DNA of 42,760 nt from contig SKVN01000072.1 in assembly GCA_007129405.1 (NCBI GenBank), positions 1 to 42,760 of the forward strand. Direction: 5' to 3'. Below, piece by piece: positions 34,739 through 42,760 of the stretch (position 1 is its first letter; every line of letters starts with the position of its first letter). Origin of the DNA: Kiritimatiellia bacterium. Its GTDB lineage: Bacteria; Verrucomicrobiota; Kiritimatiellia; UBA8416. A program made the position numbers and the translations under genes. The notes under the pieces were generated by a model that was not told the origin of the DNA, did not search any database, and saw only the letters and a program-made list of their open reading frames with translations.

Positions 34739-37372
34739 ATGAAGTATAGAAAAAGCATTATACCCTGGTTACAGAAACTCTTTTTTCTTTTTGCTTTTGT
34801 TGCGATATGGAAGACAAATGCAGAGTTAGCCGATATGTCCACCGGTGGTCCCTATGATCCGGAGGAGGAATATCGGTTATCCATAACGGGCATTATTGGA
34901 ACCGTTGCTGATGATCATATATTGGTCACGCGTGTAAAACGAGGCTCTCCCGTAGATAACGTCGTGCAGTCTGGTGATCGAATTATCCGCATACAGGGCG
35001 TTAGCTTATCCCGCGATTTGTCAGCAAGTATCCGCCGGCATATGTTGCGCCTTTGGCGAGAAAACAATGGGCGTCTTGCTCTGACGCTTGTACGGCCCGG
35101 GGAAGATAAGCAGGAAGATCTTGTGTTTGGGGTACAGTTGCATTTGCCGGCACCTTCCGGGACGATTCAGCACTTTGGTCCGATGGGAATCTTTGCGGCA
35201 TTACAGGAAGATCACATCGAGATTACGGAAGTGGTCAAGGGGTCTCCTGCTGACGGGGTATTACGAGCTGGAGACCGTATACATAAAATCGGTGGCAGAC
35301 CTTTGCGAGGGGACTTTTACAAGCTCTTTACCGAAAGCATAGACCAGGCAGAGACGGAAGCAGCAAACGGGGAGCTGTCGCTTGGGGTATTTCGCACACG
35401 AGAGGGCGATGCGGACGAGCAGTCAATCGATCTGACGCTCGTGTTGCCTGTTACCGGAACGCGCACCGAATCGAGTCCGTTTGCATGCCCGAAAACCGAC
35501 GCTTTGATTGATCGAGCAGCGGAATATCTCCTTGCCAGTGGTGATATGGGCCGCTTGAACATAGGCTTGTTAGGGCTGCTTTCAACAGGCGAGGAGCGCT
35601 TCATTGCATATGTCGGAAAACGTTTGCGCGAAGCGGATTTTACCCGGCCGGATCTGGATATTTCCATGTCGGCGTCCATGACGAGTTGGCCATGGTCCTA
35701 TCAGTTGATTACGCTTTGCGAATATTATCTGCTAACGGGGGATACCTATGTGTTGCCAGCCATTCGGACGGCTGCATTGACCTTTGCGCGTGGTCAGGAT
35801 ATTGCGGGCTTGTGGAATCATCGCATGGCGGATCCGGAGGCCAATCGTGGCCAGCTTCACGGCAGGCTTTATGGGTATGGCGCGATCAACCAGACTTCGG
35901 CACCGATCTGGATCGGGCTGATACTGGCGGAGAAATGCGGTATCGATGAGCCTGAGATCCGCCGTGCGATTGAGAAAACCCGCGCGTTATATGCAAACTG
36001 GGCAGGCAAGGGAGGATTGCCGTATGGCAATCACGCCGCCATGGAACACATTCTTACGAATAATGGAACAAGTGGGAGCGTGGCCGTGGGGTTCGCCTTG
36101 CTAGGGGACAAGGAGGCCGCAGCGTTTTATGGGAAGCTTTCCGCGGCATCGCATGGCGATATCTTTACAGGGCACACGGGGCCCTTCTTCAACTATTTAT
36201 GGTCTGGTCTTGGTGCAAATGTGTTAGGACCGGAAGTGTGGGCGGCCTACGAGAATCAGATTCGCTGGTTGCGGACGTTGACGCGCGTCTGGGATGGCAG
36301 TTTTCAATACATGGAGCAGCGTGGTGACATTTTTTCCTATAGCGAATTAAGTTCAACAGGGGCAAACCTCCTGAATATGGCGGCGGGTCGTCGGGCTTTA
36401 CATATTACGGGAAAAGGGATGGATGAAAACCTGTGGCTCCGAGGGGATGCGGTTCAATCTGCGATTTATCGACCAGAGCCAAATGAAGAAATGGCTTTGT
36501 CCGCGCTGTTAGAGCTTGTAGGTCATGTCTTGCCGCCTGTGCGGCTCGAGGTAGCCCGATCCCTCGCAGGGCATGCGGCAGATGTTGAAGAGGGTATTAG
36601 GGATATGCTTTATGAGGGCACGAGGGAACAGCGGATTGGTGCCTTACATACGTTGCGACATATCGAGATAGCGCATGTGGCAGATTCTTTGATGTCTATT
36701 ATTATGGATGATTCGGAAGATCTTTGGATTCGCGAACTCGCCATAGGTACCGTGGCACAGATAGATTCTGCTGATTCACTTGCGGGTGCGCTACTGCGTC
36801 TGATCGTATTGGATAAGCCCTACGATCGTTTTGGTAATTTGGATTTGGCATTAGGGCGTGCGCTAGTCAACATGCTCTCTCCTGATCCGTATGCGCACGA
36901 TTTGGATTGGGATGTATTCTATGCTGCCGTTTTGAAACTATTAGATCATCCACATATGTGGGCGCGGGGTGCAGGAATGAGATTGTTGGAGAACATTCCG
37001 TTAGATGAATTCTATCGGGTCGCAGACCGCGTTTTGCATGTGATTCGGGACGAAGATCTTTCGTACACCGCGTATCATGCAGATGGGCCTCGCCAAGCGG
37101 GGCTTGCTTTGCTGAATCGCTTGCAGATCGAAGAGGTTCTTGCATTGGCGATTCGAACGATTGATGCACCCACGGGGCAGCAAGGTGTTCGCAGGCGCAA
37201 CCGGATAAGCCTGATCCGTTCCTTTGGACGTGAAGCAGAGCTCGTAATTCCTTTGTTGGAGGAAGTGCTAGGCGATGCTGCGGTGCCGCTCGCCGAGTCT
37301 ATCCGGGGATCAGAAATGCGGCGTGAAATGATTCCTCTGGCGGAAGTGACGCAAGGAGGCGACGCGCCATGA
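34739..37372 (+). CDS. Exported protein with two PDZ domains, a DUF6288-like helical domain and HEAT-like repeats
   Basis: Signal-like N-terminus. PDZ motifs VTRVKRGSPVDNVVQSGDRI and ITEVVKGSPADGVLRAGDRI. LCEYYLLTGD, GRLYGYGAINQ, GHTGPFFNYLW. HEAT-like VRLEVARSL and IRELAIGTV. Confidence 0.75.
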   Translation: MKYRKSIIPWLQKLFFLFAFVAIWKTNAELADMSTGGPYDPEEEYRLSITGIIGTVADDHILVTRVKRGSPVDNVVQSGDRIIRIQGVSLSRDLSASIRRHMLRLWRENNGRLALTLVRPGEDKQEDLVFGVQLHLPAPSGTIQHFGPMGIFAALQEDHIEITEVVKGSPADGVLRAGDRIHKIGGRPLRGDFYKLFTESIDQAETEAANGELSLGVFRTREGDADEQSIDLTLVLPVTGTRTESSPFACPKTDALIDRAAEYLLASGDMGRLNIGLLGLLSTGEERFIAYVGKRLREADFTRPDLDISMSASMTSWPWSYQLITLCEYYLLTGDTYVLPAIRTAALTFARGQDIAGLWNHRMADPEANRGQLHGRLYGYGAINQTSAPIWIGLILAEKCGIDEPEIRRAIEKTRALYANWAGKGGLPYGNHAAMEHILTNNGTSGSVAVGFALLGDKEAAAFYGKLSAASHGDIFTGHTGPFFNYLWSGLGANVLGPEVWAAYENQIRWLRTLTRVWDGSFQYMEQRGDIFSYSELSSTGANLLNMAAGRRALHITGKGMDENLWLRGDAVQSAIYRPEPNEEMALSALLELVGHVLPPVRLEVARSLAGHAADVEEGIRDMLYEGTREQRIGALHTLRHIEIAHVADSLMSIIMDDSEDLWIRELAIGTVAQIDSADSLAGALLRLIVLDKPYDRFGNLDLALGRALVNMLSPDPYAHDLDWDVFYAAVLKLLDHPHMWARGAGMRLLENIPLDEFYRVADRVLHVIRDEDLSYTAYHADGPRQAGLALLNRLQIEEVLALAIRTIDAPTGQQGVRRRNRISLIRSFGREAELVIPLLEEVLGDAAVPLAESIRGSEMRREMIPLAEVTQGGDAP

Positions 37373-37397: not shown

Positions 37398-39380
37398 GTG
37401 AGTGCAGTACGGGCTGTGATCGCAGTCTGTGTGGGCTTTTTCTTGTCCATCTTCATCTGGGTCGTTGTGCCGTATAACAATTTCCTGCTGAATAATAGCT
37501 TTGTCAGCGATGGATATCTGCCGGAAATTGTGATGCTCCTACTGGTCCTGCTTGTTCTCCTTGTCAATCCCGCGCTTGCACGCATATCTCCGGCGGCGGC
37601 TTTTTCACAGCAACAGATCATTATCATTGTCAGCATGCTGCTGTTTGCAGCCGTTATTCCGAGTAATGGCCTGATGCGGTTTTTCCCACATAGCCTTGCC
37701 ATGGCAACGCAACAGATCAATGAATCCGATGTTGTGGCGAGCGCGGTTTCTGCGTCTCGCTTGCCGGCAGCATTATTTCCCGATGCGATAGGCCCCGGCT
37801 TGGATACGCCGGTTGTCGATACATTCCTTGATGAATTGCATCAGGATGAAGCCATACCCTGGGGCAGTTGGATCGCGCCGATGTTATCATGGGGGGCACT
37901 GATTGTTGCATTCTGGACTTTAATGATCGGACTAGGCTTTATGGTTTTGCCGCAGTGGATGAACCATGAACGTTTGCCATTTCCTTTGCTGCGCATTTAT
38001 GGGGCACTCGTGGAACCACCGGCGGAGGGACGTGCTGTGGCACCTTTGTTTATATCACGGTTGTTCTGGATCGGGTTTGGGGCCGTGTTCTTGCTCTATA
38101 CAACGAATGGATTGTCGATCCTGACGGGAGGAGGTTTTCCTGCATTTCCCTTGCGGTGGGATATTTCCTATCTCTTTAAAGATGGCGTATGGGTTCACGC
38201 CCCTGGATTTCTGCGAGGTTCGCGTCTCTTTTTCCTGTTTCTAGGGTTAGCATACTTTATGCCGAATCGCTACAGCTTCTCCATTTGGTTTATGGTGCTG
38301 GCGTATGGCTTGTTTATCATGTTCGCACGCACCTATATGCCCTTATTTCAACCGTTGACGATTTATGATCAGACAAGTGGCGCTTTCATTGCCATGGCGG
38401 CATGGGTCGTTTGGTTAGGTCGAAGCACATATTGGCGCTTGTTCTTGTCGGCAGTAGGTATGGGAAGCAGTGAAGAGATTGATCCCGTGGGACGGCTGGC
38501 AGCCAGACTGTTTCTCGGCGGGGCCATGGGGATGTTGGTTTGGTTTATGTGGGCAGGAACCGGTTTTATTGCTGCGGTGGGCTTCGTGTTGCTGGCAATC
38601 GTCATCATGATTATGGTCGCGCGGGTCGTGGCGGAAACCGGAGTCGCATATATTTGGATCATTCCGCTGACGGCAACGCGTATCTTCGGTCTGTTTCCCA
38701 GTCGGTTTTTTCATATTGCCACGGTGTTGATGGAACGTGCCCACTACGTGGTGGCGAATCGCGCTTCCGCAGTCAGTGCGGCCGTCATGGCCATGCTTGC
38801 GTTAGGACTAAATCGCAATGCATCCGTCAAACACAAGGAGGGACTGGCCTGGTTAGGTCTGGGTGTTTTGGTGATCGGTTTTATCGTGTGCGGGGCGGTG
38901 CATCTTCATATGGGATATCATCATGCTACGTCTCTAGATGGAATCAATATGCCGGTTGCGGGAAGAGGGGCACAGATGATGAGTATTGATCCCATGCGGC
39001 GGTTACTAACTGCACGTGAAACCGGCTTTGCTTTCGGACCATTGCGTACGATGGTGGGCGGCGTCGTGTTTGCCATTGCCTTGCTCATGCTGTGTGCGCG
39101 CTTCCCGTCATGGCCGTTGCACCCTGTAGGGCTGCTGTTTGTATATTCCTCCATTGGGCTTCGTATCACGGTAAGCATCTTTTTTGGGTGGCTGATAAAG
39201 TCGCTTATGTTGCGATATGGTGGCAACAGAGCTTATCGGGCATGCATCCCGCTGTTTTTGGGGATCATGTTCGGTGAAATATTTGCGAATGCATTTTGGA
39301 CCCTGGTGCCTGTTGTGCAGATTCTCTTCGGTGCCGATCCGGTGCATTTGCAGCGTCTGATCATATTCCAGTATACGTAA
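37398..39380 (+). CDS. DUF6785/DUF6784-like polytopic membrane protein (putative transporter)
   Basis: Many TM segments; IPWGSW, QWMNHERLPFPL, RVVAETG, WPLHPVG, LRYGG...PLFLGIMFGE. Confidence 0.75.
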   Translation: MSAVRAVIAVCVGFFLSIFIWVVVPYNNFLLNNSFVSDGYLPEIVMLLLVLLVLLVNPALARISPAAAFSQQQIIIIVSMLLFAAVIPSNGLMRFFPHSLAMATQQINESDVVASAVSASRLPAALFPDAIGPGLDTPVVDTFLDELHQDEAIPWGSWIAPMLSWGALIVAFWTLMIGLGFMVLPQWMNHERLPFPLLRIYGALVEPPAEGRAVAPLFISRLFWIGFGAVFLLYTTNGLSILTGGGFPAFPLRWDISYLFKDGVWVHAPGFLRGSRLFFLFLGLAYFMPNRYSFSIWFMVLAYGLFIMFARTYMPLFQPLTIYDQTSGAFIAMAAWVVWLGRSTYWRLFLSAVGMGSSEEIDPVGRLAARLFLGGAMGMLVWFMWAGTGFIAAVGFVLLAIVIMIMVARVVAETGVAYIWIIPLTATRIFGLFPSRFFHIATVLMERAHYVVANRASAVSAAVMAMLALGLNRNASVKHKEGLAWLGLGVLVIGFIVCGAVHLHMGYHHATSLDGINMPVAGRGAQMMSIDPMRRLLTARETGFAFGPLRTMVGGVVFAIALLMLCARFPSWPLHPVGLLFVYSSIGLRITVSIFFGWLIKSLMLRYGGNRAYRACIPLFLGIMFGEIFANAFWTLVPVVQILFGADPVHLQRLIIFQYT

Positions 39381-39428
39381 AACATTCGTGAAAGTGCATC
39401 ATTGCGCTCCATATTTTCGTGGGTGAGT

Positions 39429-39643
39429 ATGGAGTGCGGCGATCTGAATCGCCGCTTTGGGGGGCACGGAGTGCCGGGGGACGGTGATGGGCTTAGCGCG
39501 ATTGATGAATCGATGGTTTGCTATGAGTCGAGTAGGCTGTGGGGGGGCGCTCCGCTTGGATGAAAGCGGTGAGATCGCTTCGCTCGTCACCGCACTCCAT
39601 ATGGATTGGTGGTGGATATGGAGTGCGGCATCATTCTGACGCC
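39429..39643. repeat. REP/REPIN-like palindromic repeat cluster, copy 2, between convergent genes
   Basis: TGGAGTGCGGCGATCTGAATCGCCGCTTTGG; inverted AAAGCGGTGAGATCGCTTCGCTCGTCACCGCACTCCA (39563-39599); a third partial TGGAGTGCGGC unit near 39619. Confidence 0.85.
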
Positions 39644-39649
39644 AAACGC

Positions 39650-42568
39650 TTAGTTTAGAATAGTCTTGATGATTTGAGGCGAGAGCTCTTGTAGTGGCTT
39701 TTGGGTTGCGCCGTCTGCGTAAGCATAGAGACACTTGAGCAGTTGACGTGCTTCGGGATGTTTCTGTAAACCCATTACGTCTATTGTGCAGACAATCAAA
39801 CGGCCTTTGCCGACTTTTGCCTCGAGAATGAGGCCCAACTTATGATTGCGGTCGAAACCATCGATCACTTGTACGACCGGACGGAATTTGTGCGGTGTAT
39901 CATTCAGGATCATCGGGTCGCAATGCTTGACCAGTTGCCACCATTGCCAGTTGGAATGGAACTCCGTTGGAAAATCCTTGAAGAGTGGATGCTTCGGGTC
40001 GAGCAGAATTCCTTGTGTTCCTGGAAACTGCTTGCCATCCGGAGTTTTTTTGTTGCCTATACGGAACATGGGTGACCAGAATCCCGTCTGGAAAGCCATC
40101 CGAACGGTTCTCTTGAGAGCACCGGGTCTGGTCAAAAGCAGTACGGTTGCGCCTGCCTCCAAATCGGTTTGCACTTTGCGGTTCAGGCTCCGTGTAACCG
40201 TGACTCCTTTTGGTGCTGCAATGATATTCTGACCTTGAAGATTTTTCAAACCCTTAGCAGCGGCAAGGGATTGCCGCCCTCCATGTTCATATGACATTTT
40301 GGAGGGACGCAATCCTTTGCGTCCGCTACCAAGGTCTTGTTGTATCGTGATATCCGGGTATACCCAGATATCGTAGCTATTTTTGTACGGCGTGCCTGGA
40401 ATCGCAATTGTAACCTGTAGTTTCTCGGCTTTTTTAATGCCGCTGAGATCGGCGGAGAACAAATCGACATCGGTTACATTGCCTGTGGGAATGTCCATTG
40501 TGCGGGTCTGTCCCTTGGCAACGACTTTCTTGTTGGCTGTAATGGTCCAGGTCAGATGTTTCTGGATAAAATCTTTGGGGCCATAATGCGCAATGCGAAT
40601 GCGGCCATGGAAGGTTTCCGTATTGGTCCATGTGTATTTCGTCATCCAGAGTAGGGGCACCGTTTCGCAACAGAATGCTCGCCATGCTGCGGGGGAGATA
40701 AGGCCTTTTGAATCCATAAATGCGTCTAGAATGCCGACCAGAGCAGTACCTTGACCGCTGAAGTCCATGAGGTCGAGGAGATGAAATCCACCATGGCCGG
40801 CGGTTCGCAAGCAGGCCTCGATATCCTCGCGATGGCAAATTACAGATAGTGCGCCAGATGCCTTGAGAAAGTCCCGTGCTTGATTGAGCATTCCCGCGGC
40901 TTTGAGTCGTTCCCGGAATATTTCAAAATTGCGAGCACGTAAGACACCCGTGTACTTTTTGATTTCGCGATAGTCTGGGTATACTTCGAATTCACCATTT
41001 TCGTGGGTGATAACGGGAATCGGTACCCCTTGGATGGCTGAACCATATTCGACGGTTGTGGATGGGGCTTGGTGGTCAATGTGGAGATTCGATTCAAACG
41101 ATGCTCCCCGCACGGGACGTTTCCTGGATGTGCCACGTGTGACCCAGAAATCGTCTCCCTCCCGGCGGCCGATATCCCAATGGAAGTGCCCCGAGCCCAT
41201 GGCATACAAATGACGATTGTCAATCGAACGGAAGTGATCGCAAATACCCTTCATGACGCTCTCATCACCACCGAGTTCGTTGCCGAGCGTTAGCATCACA
41301 AATGAGGGGTGGTTGCCGTAGGCTTTCAGAATACGTTCTCCTTCTCGCAGCAGATAGGCGGTCCGGATGGCAGGGGGACCGCCATCGCCCTCCAGCTCGT
41401 CCAGCGTTTCATAAGCTTCTGCAGGGGGGCGATAATCCTTGTTGTCGGGGGCGGTGATTTCGCGTTTGTTGGGGAGCTCCGCCAACAGGTACATGCCTAG
41501 TTCATCTGCCGCTGCAAAAGCTGCTTCGGGTGGACACCAGGAGTGGAACCGGTAATGATTCAGTCCGTATGATTTGGCAATAGAAAGCAACCGCATCCAT
41601 TCTTGCTTTTCCATGGGGGCATATCCCGTAAGCGGGAAGATGGCACTGTCCACGCGCCCTCGCAGGTAGGTTGGGCGGCCGTTAATCACAAACTGACCGC
41701 GGTCCGTAGCAAAGTTGCGCAAGCCGCACACGACACTGCAAGTATCTTGCCGCCACGTGGCGACCGGCATGGCCTTTGTTTCCAGCGTGACGCGCAGCAA
41801 GGCTGGGTTGAACTCGTCCCAGCAACAAATGGAGTCGGGAATTCCGATGGTTGCTGCTGTTTGGGTGACGCGTTCCCGTAACAATGTGCCACTCTCTACC
41901 GCAGGAATTGCCGGGGCCTTCTTTCCTAAAAACTCGGCTTTCCAGATGAAGTCAGCAGCACCACTCCAGTTCGTTTCGTTGATGATTGTAGCTTTAACCT
42001 GAATTTTACGTTCTGCTGCGTTTGGATATGCTTGCAGACTCTGAATCCAGATGGGCTCCCTTGCGGTGAGGGTTATCTTCCCAAGGATTCCGTTCCAATT
42101 GGTTTGGGTACGCTCATCCACTTGGTGGCAGGGACCTACGGGAGGCAGTTTCGCGTTATCAATCAAAATGGTAATGGTATGCTTGCCGGGTGTCAGCAAT
42201 TTGGATAAATCGAATTCATGGGGGGTCGACAAGGAGTCATCACTACCGGTCCATTTTTCATCCACCCAGACCTGACTGTTTTTGGTGCGTTCCAGAAAAA
42301 GAAAGACTTTTTTGTTTTTCCATGCTGCCGGAATATCAACTTCCTGCTGATACCATGCGGGGCCGATCCAGCGGTACAAACGCGAAAGCCTATCGGCACA
42401 GGCTTCGTTCGTGACCTCGCCATAGCCGGCTTCATCGGTGGTTCCGGGGAGAGAGATGGTGTCGGGCAATTTCTTGTTGAACCAGCGCTGTTTAATGCCT
42501 TGGTTCTGTGGATCCAGTTTGAACCGCCATGTACCTGCGAGCGAAAGCGTGTTTTCAGAAGTAGCCAT
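39650..42568 (-). CDS. Glycoside hydrolase family 2, no signal peptide
   Basis: SLAGTWRF, AWYQ, LFLERT, NWNGILG, YGLNHYRFHSWCPP, ADELG, GNHPSFVM, LGNE (acid/base), THE (nucleophile). AAAGGA SD before ATG 42568. Confidence 0.9.
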   Translation of the reverse strand: MATSENTLSLAGTWRFKLDPQNQGIKQRWFNKKLPDTISLPGTTDEAGYGEVTNEACADRLSRLYRWIGPAWYQQEVDIPAAWKNKKVFLFLERTKNSQVWVDEKWTGSDDSLSTPHEFDLSKLLTPGKHTITILIDNAKLPPVGPCHQVDERTQTNWNGILGKITLTAREPIWIQSLQAYPNAAERKIQVKATIINETNWSGAADFIWKAEFLGKKAPAIPAVESGTLLRERVTQTAATIGIPDSICCWDEFNPALLRVTLETKAMPVATWRQDTCSVVCGLRNFATDRGQFVINGRPTYLRGRVDSAIFPLTGYAPMEKQEWMRLLSIAKSYGLNHYRFHSWCPPEAAFAAADELGMYLLAELPNKREITAPDNKDYRPPAEAYETLDELEGDGGPPAIRTAYLLREGERILKAYGNHPSFVMLTLGNELGGDESVMKGICDHFRSIDNRHLYAMGSGHFHWDIGRREGDDFWVTRGTSRKRPVRGASFESNLHIDHQAPSTTVEYGSAIQGVPIPVITHENGEFEVYPDYREIKKYTGVLRARNFEIFRERLKAAGMLNQARDFLKASGALSVICHREDIEACLRTAGHGGFHLLDLMDFSGQGTALVGILDAFMDSKGLISPAAWRAFCCETVPLLWMTKYTWTNTETFHGRIRIAHYGPKDFIQKHLTWTITANKKVVAKGQTRTMDIPTGNVTDVDLFSADLSGIKKAEKLQVTIAIPGTPYKNSYDIWVYPDITIQQDLGSGRKGLRPSKMSYEHGGRQSLAAAKGLKNLQGQNIIAAPKGVTVTRSLNRKVQTDLEAGATVLLLTRPGALKRTVRMAFQTGFWSPMFRIGNKKTPDGKQFPGTQGILLDPKHPLFKDFPTEFHSNWQWWQLVKHCDPMILNDTPHKFRPVVQVIDGFDRNHKLGLILEAKVGKGRLIVCTIDVMGLQKHPEARQLLKCLYAYADGATQKPLQELSPQIIKTILN
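40231..40336. repeat. Palindromic REP-like doublet located in frame inside the GH2 CDS
   Basis: Hairpin GCGGCAA-GGGA-TTGCCGC-CCTCCA, spacer ATGTTCATATGACAT, inverted TGGAG-GGACGCAA-TCCT-TTGCGTCC. Outer pair GACCTTG/CAAGGTC. Confidence 0.75.
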
Positions 42569-42688
42569 CCTAGTCGTCCTTTTACTATTTTGAGCAAAAA
42601 TACTATTGCAATAGCTGCATCCTAAACGGCATTGTTTATAACTCAACGATTTTTTCAGTCACTGCGTTGGGTGGTGCGCCTCGTCGCT

Positions 42689-42760
42689 TCGCTCCCCCCA
42701 AAGCGGTGCGGTCGCTATCGCTCGCCTGTCGCGCCGTAGCGTATTCGCGAAGGGGGAGCA
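42689..42760. repeat. REP/REPIN-like repeat, copy 3, probably truncated by the window end
   Basis: TCGCTCCCCCCAAAGCGGTGCGGTCGCTATCGCTCGCCTGTCGCGCCGTAGC is an imperfect reverse complement of 8095-8146. Confidence 0.8.

Follow-up and report, generated by a model that had tools for sequence, protein, structure and literature searches.

The window analysed here, a stretch of 42,760 nucleotides, carries on its minus strand (39650..42568) an open reading frame of 972 amino acids that contains the Pfam domains PF02837 and PF02836 of a GH2 glycoside hydrolase, and this frame stays open across a palindromic stretch of DNA. This raises the question of whether mobile DNA has become part of the protein and, if so, in what form it arrived. 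The window belongs to a fragmented MAG of 1.97 Mb that is 76% complete. The best named homologue of the GH2 protein comes from a Kiritimatiellia bacterium, and the sequencing runs containing the window DNA are metagenomes from soda lakes, salt lakes and alkali sediments. One metagenome contig jumps from position 40183 to position 40356 of the window, matching on either side only. The original prediction was that a palindromic element of the REP type had landed in frame in an interdomain linker, and the nine motifs named in its support are all in place: GCGGCAA at 40260, TTGCCGC at 40271, CCCTCCA at 40277, the spacer at 40283, TGGAGGG at 40300, GGACGCAA at 40305, TTGCGTCC at 40317, and the outer pair GACCTTG at 40231 and CAAGGTC at 40330. 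The peptide said to result is indeed read in the frame of the GH2 gene.

Homologues settle the first part of the question. Between the WVYP motif and the next conserved stretch, the linker counts 49 residues in the query versus 9 (115 homologues) or 10 (4 homologues); the comparison covers the best 120 proteins of 6,930 matches, and the segment is missing in 119 of the 119 homologues listed. The DNA of relatives has a gap at the insert position that matches the protein gap, so the predicted gap in an orthologue alignment is found at both levels. The GH2 linker thus holds a real in-frame insertion, consisting of a RAYT-associated REP dimer and its flanks. That the insert should be an assembly artefact, or the gene dead despite its open frame, is hardly credible: the MAG is fragmented and no RNA run is among the listed runs with window DNA, but the 972-residue form has four database members, contigs from separate metagenome runs span the junction between insert and gene, in some cases with variant letters, and the NE (430-431) and HE (522-523) motifs, whose glutamates we take to be the catalytic ones, are intact and invariant in 121 sequences.

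The insert was expected to lie between domains, and both a structure match and a model support this. The nearest PDB structure is 8U01 (E 3e-152; TM 0.83), whose subfamily is given as GH2_20 in the part of PMC12243196 considered here. The model was built from 121 sequences, of which the first (P0001) differs by one residue from the window and two contain the insert. Its mean pLDDT is 86.5 and falls below 50 at residues 747-779, within the insert, a low value to be expected in part when just two aligned sequences of 121 have this segment. A beta-sandwich extends to residue ~737 and is followed by the insert and then, from ~789, by an alpha/beta domain; on this model the insert is expected to form a loose loop joining the Ig-like domain to the C-terminal one. 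A fold computed from the single GH2 sequence was unusable (pLDDT 33.5).

Could such a loop be kept for its usefulness, either as a peptide or as an mRNA hairpin? Its presence in divergent metagenome contigs would fit this idea, as would its retention, free of indels, in P0121, one of the four database members, which is 89% identical and differs at 109 of 972 residues, six of them in the linker region. Yet the insert has changed at least as fast as the remainder of that protein (6/39 versus 103/933 residues; Fisher p = 0.43, rates indistinguishable), it is predicted to be unstructured, and the inserted peptides of this family recur in unrelated proteins in other frames, with frame and strand varying between genes. 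We therefore regard maintenance by selection as very unlikely. The peptide is presumably translated and neutral, and the GH2 insertion taken alone is probably an ordinary, neutral case of a known phenomenon. Its value is that of a clean filled-versus-empty example, in which repeat DNA has turned protein-coding and has been kept across 11% protein divergence.

The linker excess and the alignment with intact elements suggest that the whole inserted element occupies 40237..40352, about 113-116 bp with an uncertain right edge at 40349-40352; with a 4-bp duplication this makes 117-120 nt, or 39-40 codons, corresponding to GH2 residues ~739-778. On the left lies a putative decayed IS1182-like terminal inverted repeat (40237..40253, plus strand), which matches the intact repeat at 12/17 positions (p 0.0006) with the same offset as in intact copies. 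REP unit B follows (40258..40283, minus strand), with a TGGAG head pointing towards the spacer and a GGCGGC-type stem, then the variable 16-nt spacer of a tail-to-tail dimer (40284..40299) and REP unit A (40300..40325, plus strand), with a TGGAG head, a GGACGC-type stem and an exact match to the family consensus. The right flank (40326..40352) is a possible remnant of a second terminal repeat, matching in register at 9/17 positions, which by itself does not reach significance (p about 0.07). The arms 40255-40283 and 40300-40328 form a 29-nt inverted repeat, 79% complementary, and folded as DNA the element stretch reaches -26.5 kcal/mol (z = -5.3), a value equalled by 0 of 200 shuffles. An Rfam search with the element returned four sub-threshold matches and none above the gathering score.

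This anatomy revises several boundaries of the original prediction. CCCTCCA and TGGAGGG, taken as the ends of the element, are in fact the heads of REP units B and A, on the inside of the dimer. The outer pair, GACCTTG/CAAGGTC, is probably incidental, as it is absent from other copies and its left arm lies almost entirely beyond the inferred left end at 40237. The near-palindromic spacer is not a conserved feature either, since spacers vary from 8 to 45 nt among the 11 tail-to-tail dimers of the genome and only that of C136 is similar. Moreover, the REP dimer covers just 68-74 of the 117-120 inserted bases. The 21 bases of left flank leading up to REP unit B match an intact end in register at 15 positions, a score reached by 5 of 200,000 random 21-mers from the genome, and metagenome contigs with an intact copy, from two runs, match the window until 40247 and then continue into the intact repeat. 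No 4-bp target duplication is found at either candidate right edge of the GH2 insert; its loss may be explained by age.

The REP units belong to a genome-wide family, as had been anticipated. Four related 26-nt units account for 46 copies at 31 loci of the genome and for none in 600 kb of base-shuffled genome. In this they correspond to RAYT-associated REPs, which are GC-rich, imperfect hairpins of 20-40 nt repeated many times in a genome. The loci comprise the 11 tail-to-tail dimers, four head-to-head dimers with spacers of 24-25 nt, and 16 singles. This agrees with the rule, set out in the part of PMC3733652 considered here, that tail-to-tail dimers have variable and head-to-head dimers conserved spacers. 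Some of the single loci are decayed dimers. The TGGAG head is present in 41 of 46 units and the base before it is free (T16, C15, A11, G3). RAYT-REP units are defined by GT(A/G)G heads in the sections considered of PMC2817692 and PMC6006769; the TGGAG units do not have this canonical head, and having a conserved but non-canonical one they fall outside the canonical GTAG families. The strict unit pattern is patchily distributed, occurring in 6 of 61 genomes and in none of four congeners, one of which (G003) has a divergent unit (L117).

RAYT homologues occur in 28 of the 61 genomes. A scan of all loci for the motif led to one metagenome contig (L106) on which dimers of TGGAG REP units lie on both sides of a rayt gene interrupted by one internal stop; the product of this gene matches model NF047646 with E 4e-6, below the cut-off. 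Eight of 30 RAYT homologue loci lie in arrays of at least five TGGAG-headed hairpins. A cognate RAYT homologue was not found in the genome of the window or in its congeners, and a scan of viral contigs for RAYT gave nothing. Loci with PF01797 were considered as the RAYT partner and rejected: none of four in the genome of the window is flanked by TGGAG units, nor is any of 30 in five REP-bearing genomes, apart from one spurious match.

A second mobile system becomes visible in related genomes. In G028, G016 and one metagenome, the same dimer lies within elements of 122 or 131 bp that end in inverted repeats of 15-17 bp, which we call shells, and the genome of the window itself has a 121-bp shell with a dimer (C163) in which both ends match at 14/17. 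Of 401 genomes of the phylum, 81 have at least one match to the terminal repeat; in many there is just one, near control level, but five genomes have 46-104 matches with controls of 0. The cargoes of these shells are varied and include other REP types and heptamer arrays; one shell (L162) is empty and 42 bp long. Six of 19 short shells are bordered by a perfect 4-bp duplication, the alternative lengths of 2, 3, 5 and 6 bp giving 1, 0, 1 and 0. In a larger set of 37 short shells, two rows of which are inner mis-pairings, the duplication is perfect in 13, matches at 3/4 in nine more and at 0/4 in ten; among REP-carrying shells it is perfect in only 3 of 11.

The likely source of the transposition activity is a full-length relative. 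Genome G310 has a 1,621-bp IS with identical ends that encodes a 368-aa transposase with DUF772 and DDE domains, whose best match is the IS1182 model NF033551 at 96.6 bits against a cut-off of 270. Ends in common with the shells are also found in the IS copies L245, L256, L257 and L262 and in plasmid copies; three of five near-full-length copies (L245, L256, L257) are without duplication. Plasmid relatives of the G310 element are annotated as IS1182/ISUnCu17 and have the same ends, 4-bp duplications and transposases that are 43-45% identical. Among 15 other members of the family to which the window's genome belongs, six encode homologues of the transposase; none was found in that genome, at 76% completeness, or in four congeners. 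Plasmid BLAST with empty and loaded shells gave no real match, and a scan of viral contigs for the terminal repeat returned 51 loci, nearly all of them chance matches in coding DNA. Taken together, these results show that in relatives an IS1182-like shell family with target duplications carries such REP dimers. The predicted REP insertion holds in that the units are RAYT-associated REPs, but what moved was probably more than the dimer, a MITE bounded by IS1182-like repeats.

Within the genome of the window, the flanks of the 11 tail-to-tail dimers, when pooled, are enriched for the terminal repeat on both sides (p <= 5e-5), a signal driven in part by C163; taken dimer by dimer, the left end is significant in 3/11 and the right end in 3/11. 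The shell plus 4 bp corresponds to 117-120 nt, which is the excess of the protein, and we accordingly take the insert to be a loaded shell that is old and has decayed; on these sequence features the GH2 copy probably came as a REP-loaded shell. The best explanation, to which we give a probability of roughly 0.6, is that the ~120 bases likely came in a single event, as an IS1182-type mini-transposon with two REP units tail to tail, and that the protein likely tolerates the result as a loose loop. Mini-transposon delivery at GH2 is something that we infer, given the poor match of the right end and the lack of a surviving duplication.

Alternatively, RAYT alone may have put in the REP dimer as single-stranded DNA together with some flank of a donor MITE, and no DDE step would have taken place at this site. 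TGGAG units do flank a rayt gene, related RAYTs do lie in hairpin arrays, and the GH2 copy has a single recognisable end and lacks the duplication. There is also no shell at the head-to-head dimers and singles (4 and 16 of 31 loci) or at many dimers elsewhere, and in G016 a U32 peptidase with a bare dimer exceeds four orthologues by 15-18 aa, too little for a shell. At GH2, by contrast, the length of the insert equals a shell plus 4 bp and the recognisable end lies where the protein alignment places the edge, and the cognate RAYT is just as absent from the genome and congeners searched as the IS transposase. We consider this route somewhat unlikely. Very unlikely is a two-step history in which an empty shell entered GH2 and the REP dimer was inserted later. 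The empty 42-bp shell makes such a start conceivable, and the many unrelated cargoes indicate that loading recurs. Against it, neither 42 + 4 nt nor the 48 + 4 nt of GH2 flank is divisible by three, so that, judging from these lengths, the intermediate would have been frameshifted, and identical loaded shells occur at several loci of G028.

Under delivery as a loaded mini-transposon, a RAYT tyrosine transposase would first insert TGGAG REP hairpins at the palindromic midpoint of a tiny element with IS1182-like ends; that RAYT loads the shells is our second inference. The DDE transposase of the IS would then move the composite in trans, a step supported in relatives by the terminal repeats, the 4-bp duplications and the full-length IS with the same ends, and probable at the GH2 site. 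At GH2, element plus duplication was a multiple of three and stop-free in the GH2 frame, and for this reason the gene stayed open. Finally, ends and duplication would decay and the peptide would stay as a neutral linker.

In-frame REP elements are a known phenomenon, and the suggestion that such an insertion is undescribed in this lineage stands only in part. In the part of PMC3733652 considered here, the PVC bacterium Opitutus terrae has 70 rows of intragenic REPs, one of them a dimer in the GH2 gene Oter_1283; its supplement, in the same part, contains no match to peptides of the TGGAG family. The two systems are alike in occurring in a PVC bacterium, in forming in-frame heterodimers in enzymes including GH2, in their spacer rules and in their link to RAYT. 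They differ in the head, which is TGGAG here, after a base that varies freely, and GT(A/G)G in O. terrae, and in insert length, which is 39-40 aa here and 20-30 aa there for most inserts of dimers or groups; the GH2 insert is longer because it includes shell sequence. The same part of that paper reports, for Halothiobacillus neapolitanus and Anabaena variabilis, REP dimers enclosed by a longer palindrome, and the 41-bp consensus of H. neapolitanus is similar by eye to our shell. These palindromes are treated there as targets, with no duplication, IS or mobility attached to them, whereas the shells have 4-bp duplications, an empty form and a complete IS that shares their ends.

With ISUnCu17 and ISPse1, an IS1182-family element with 16-bp repeats and a 4-bp duplication (PMC3281130, in part), the shell family shares terminal repeats of 15-17 bp, the 4-bp duplication and the DUF772+DDE transposase; unlike them, it includes shell derivatives of 42-350 bp with REP or short tandem-repeat cargo. 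In-frame fusions of MITEs and of Rickettsia palindromic elements are covered in PMC3184786 and PMC10969869, as far as the sections considered here go. Like the Rickettsia elements, which we compared by description only, the present ones are palindromic DNA of 100-150 bp lying in frame within unrelated metabolic genes. According to the portion of a review considered here, the Rickettsia elements encode a conserved peptide, whereas the frames and strands of the TGGAG inserts vary; and in contrast to that case, a RAYT and a DDE transposase can each be put forward as partners of the TGGAG and shell elements. IS1182 is not mentioned in the portion considered of a 2024 MITE review, and we found no paper on the TGGAG family or on IS1182-type MITEs carrying REPs in a search that was sparse in subscription journals and had ISfinder outside its scope. 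The vehicle, a REP within an IS1182-type MITE, may be the new part. Since its terminal repeats are of an ordinary kind, its duplication measures 4 bp and its DDE transposase can be identified, such a vehicle lends itself to a standard transposition assay.

Besides GH2, four or more proteins in the genome of the window are affected; five of the 31 loci were compared with orthologues, and all five alter a protein. The insert in tyrA is internal and makes the protein 42 aa longer than in 4/4 congeners; 42 codons equal 122 + 4 nt, a fit of length only, as this copy has no recognisable ends. The other three are C-terminal extensions, of +44 aa in an ABC ATPase (versus G003), +56-62 aa in a HAD hydrolase (versus four relatives) and +25-32 aa in GH95 (versus three). 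In G016, a Ddl-GNAT fusion contains a whole shell in frame and is 44-52 aa longer than five full-length orthologues, a sixth, split orthologue being left out of this count. The L042 insert also lies in GH95, with homologues too distant to size it.

These cases lead to a broader, tentative reading, that in Kiritimatiellia-like bacteria IS1182-ended elements might serve as general shuttles, loaded by RAYT and spread by DDE transposase. Since the common sizes (122 + 4 and 131 + 4) keep the frame, two unrelated transposase systems might thus jointly write segments of 40-45 residues into housekeeping proteins. If true, this would provide a second, testable route for the spread of REPs, which is still poorly understood (PMC8266576, in part), and would account for the 'target palindromes' described next to REP dimers of other phyla. 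Length plus 4 is divisible by three in 21 of 37 short shells and in 9 of 11 REP-carrying ones, a frame bias that is a lead only, because shell copies are related. Stop-free reading is common in these sequences, with 66 of 90 frames open in the dimers and 13 of 18 in three intact shells.

The GH2-type REP dimer, a pair of TGGAG-headed hairpin units, also contributes coding sequence to a second protein of the source genome (G000), the prephenate dehydrogenase TyrA (contig C35, 7121-8260), where it is the source of an internal, in-frame insert of 42 amino acids that is missing from all four of the same-genus genomes. Further apparent in-frame overlaps with REP sequence were seen in the source genome at C21:10629-10654 and at three other loci (L064, L073 and L042), the proteins concerned being a small membrane protein, a DUF763-like protein, the N-terminus of TolB and a GH95 protein.

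REP dimers of the GH2 type were also read by eye inside two further shells, as we call the short MITE-like elements, at L052 and L062 (both in genome G010) and L049 (in G022). Both shells have different ends, one with apparent 10-bp duplications and the other with a 4-bp duplication, also read by eye. Several MITE families may be loaded with REP dimers. Since the head-to-head dimers of the source genome at C45:2177, C78:244, C120:6548, C126:8866 and C164:3210 have longer flanks in common, their sequences suggest a larger composite repeat around them. Shell lengths appear to cluster near 100, 110, 121, 131, 140, 155, 165 and 175 bp, spaced by roughly one helical turn, and the copies are related. 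In the IS1182-like element (L245:1255-2875, L256 and L262), either end is itself a palindrome of about 65 bp in which the terminal repeat recurs, inverted, on the inner side of a GC-rich hairpin; the tiny shells could derive from one such end alone.

The GH2 gene converges with the genes for a PDZ-DUF6288 protein (34739-37372) and a DUF6785/DUF6784 membrane protein (37398-39380), and the gap between the latter and GH2 (39406-39640) is filled by a second, distinct REP-like family of the TGGAGTGCGG type, found by BLAST as 52 pieces over 31 contigs, with 57 10-mer matches. A third repeat family occupies the final 105 bases of the window (42656-42760), which are identical to C43:17-121, so the two contigs may join or may have a repeat in common.

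Elsewhere in the source genome, a RAYT-like gene (C23:10144-10392, L022) is flanked by yet another repeat family, and GGGACAG-type short tandem repeats precede the long Y1-transposase genes (frames of 339-367 amino acids) on C195 and C129 (L023 and L024).
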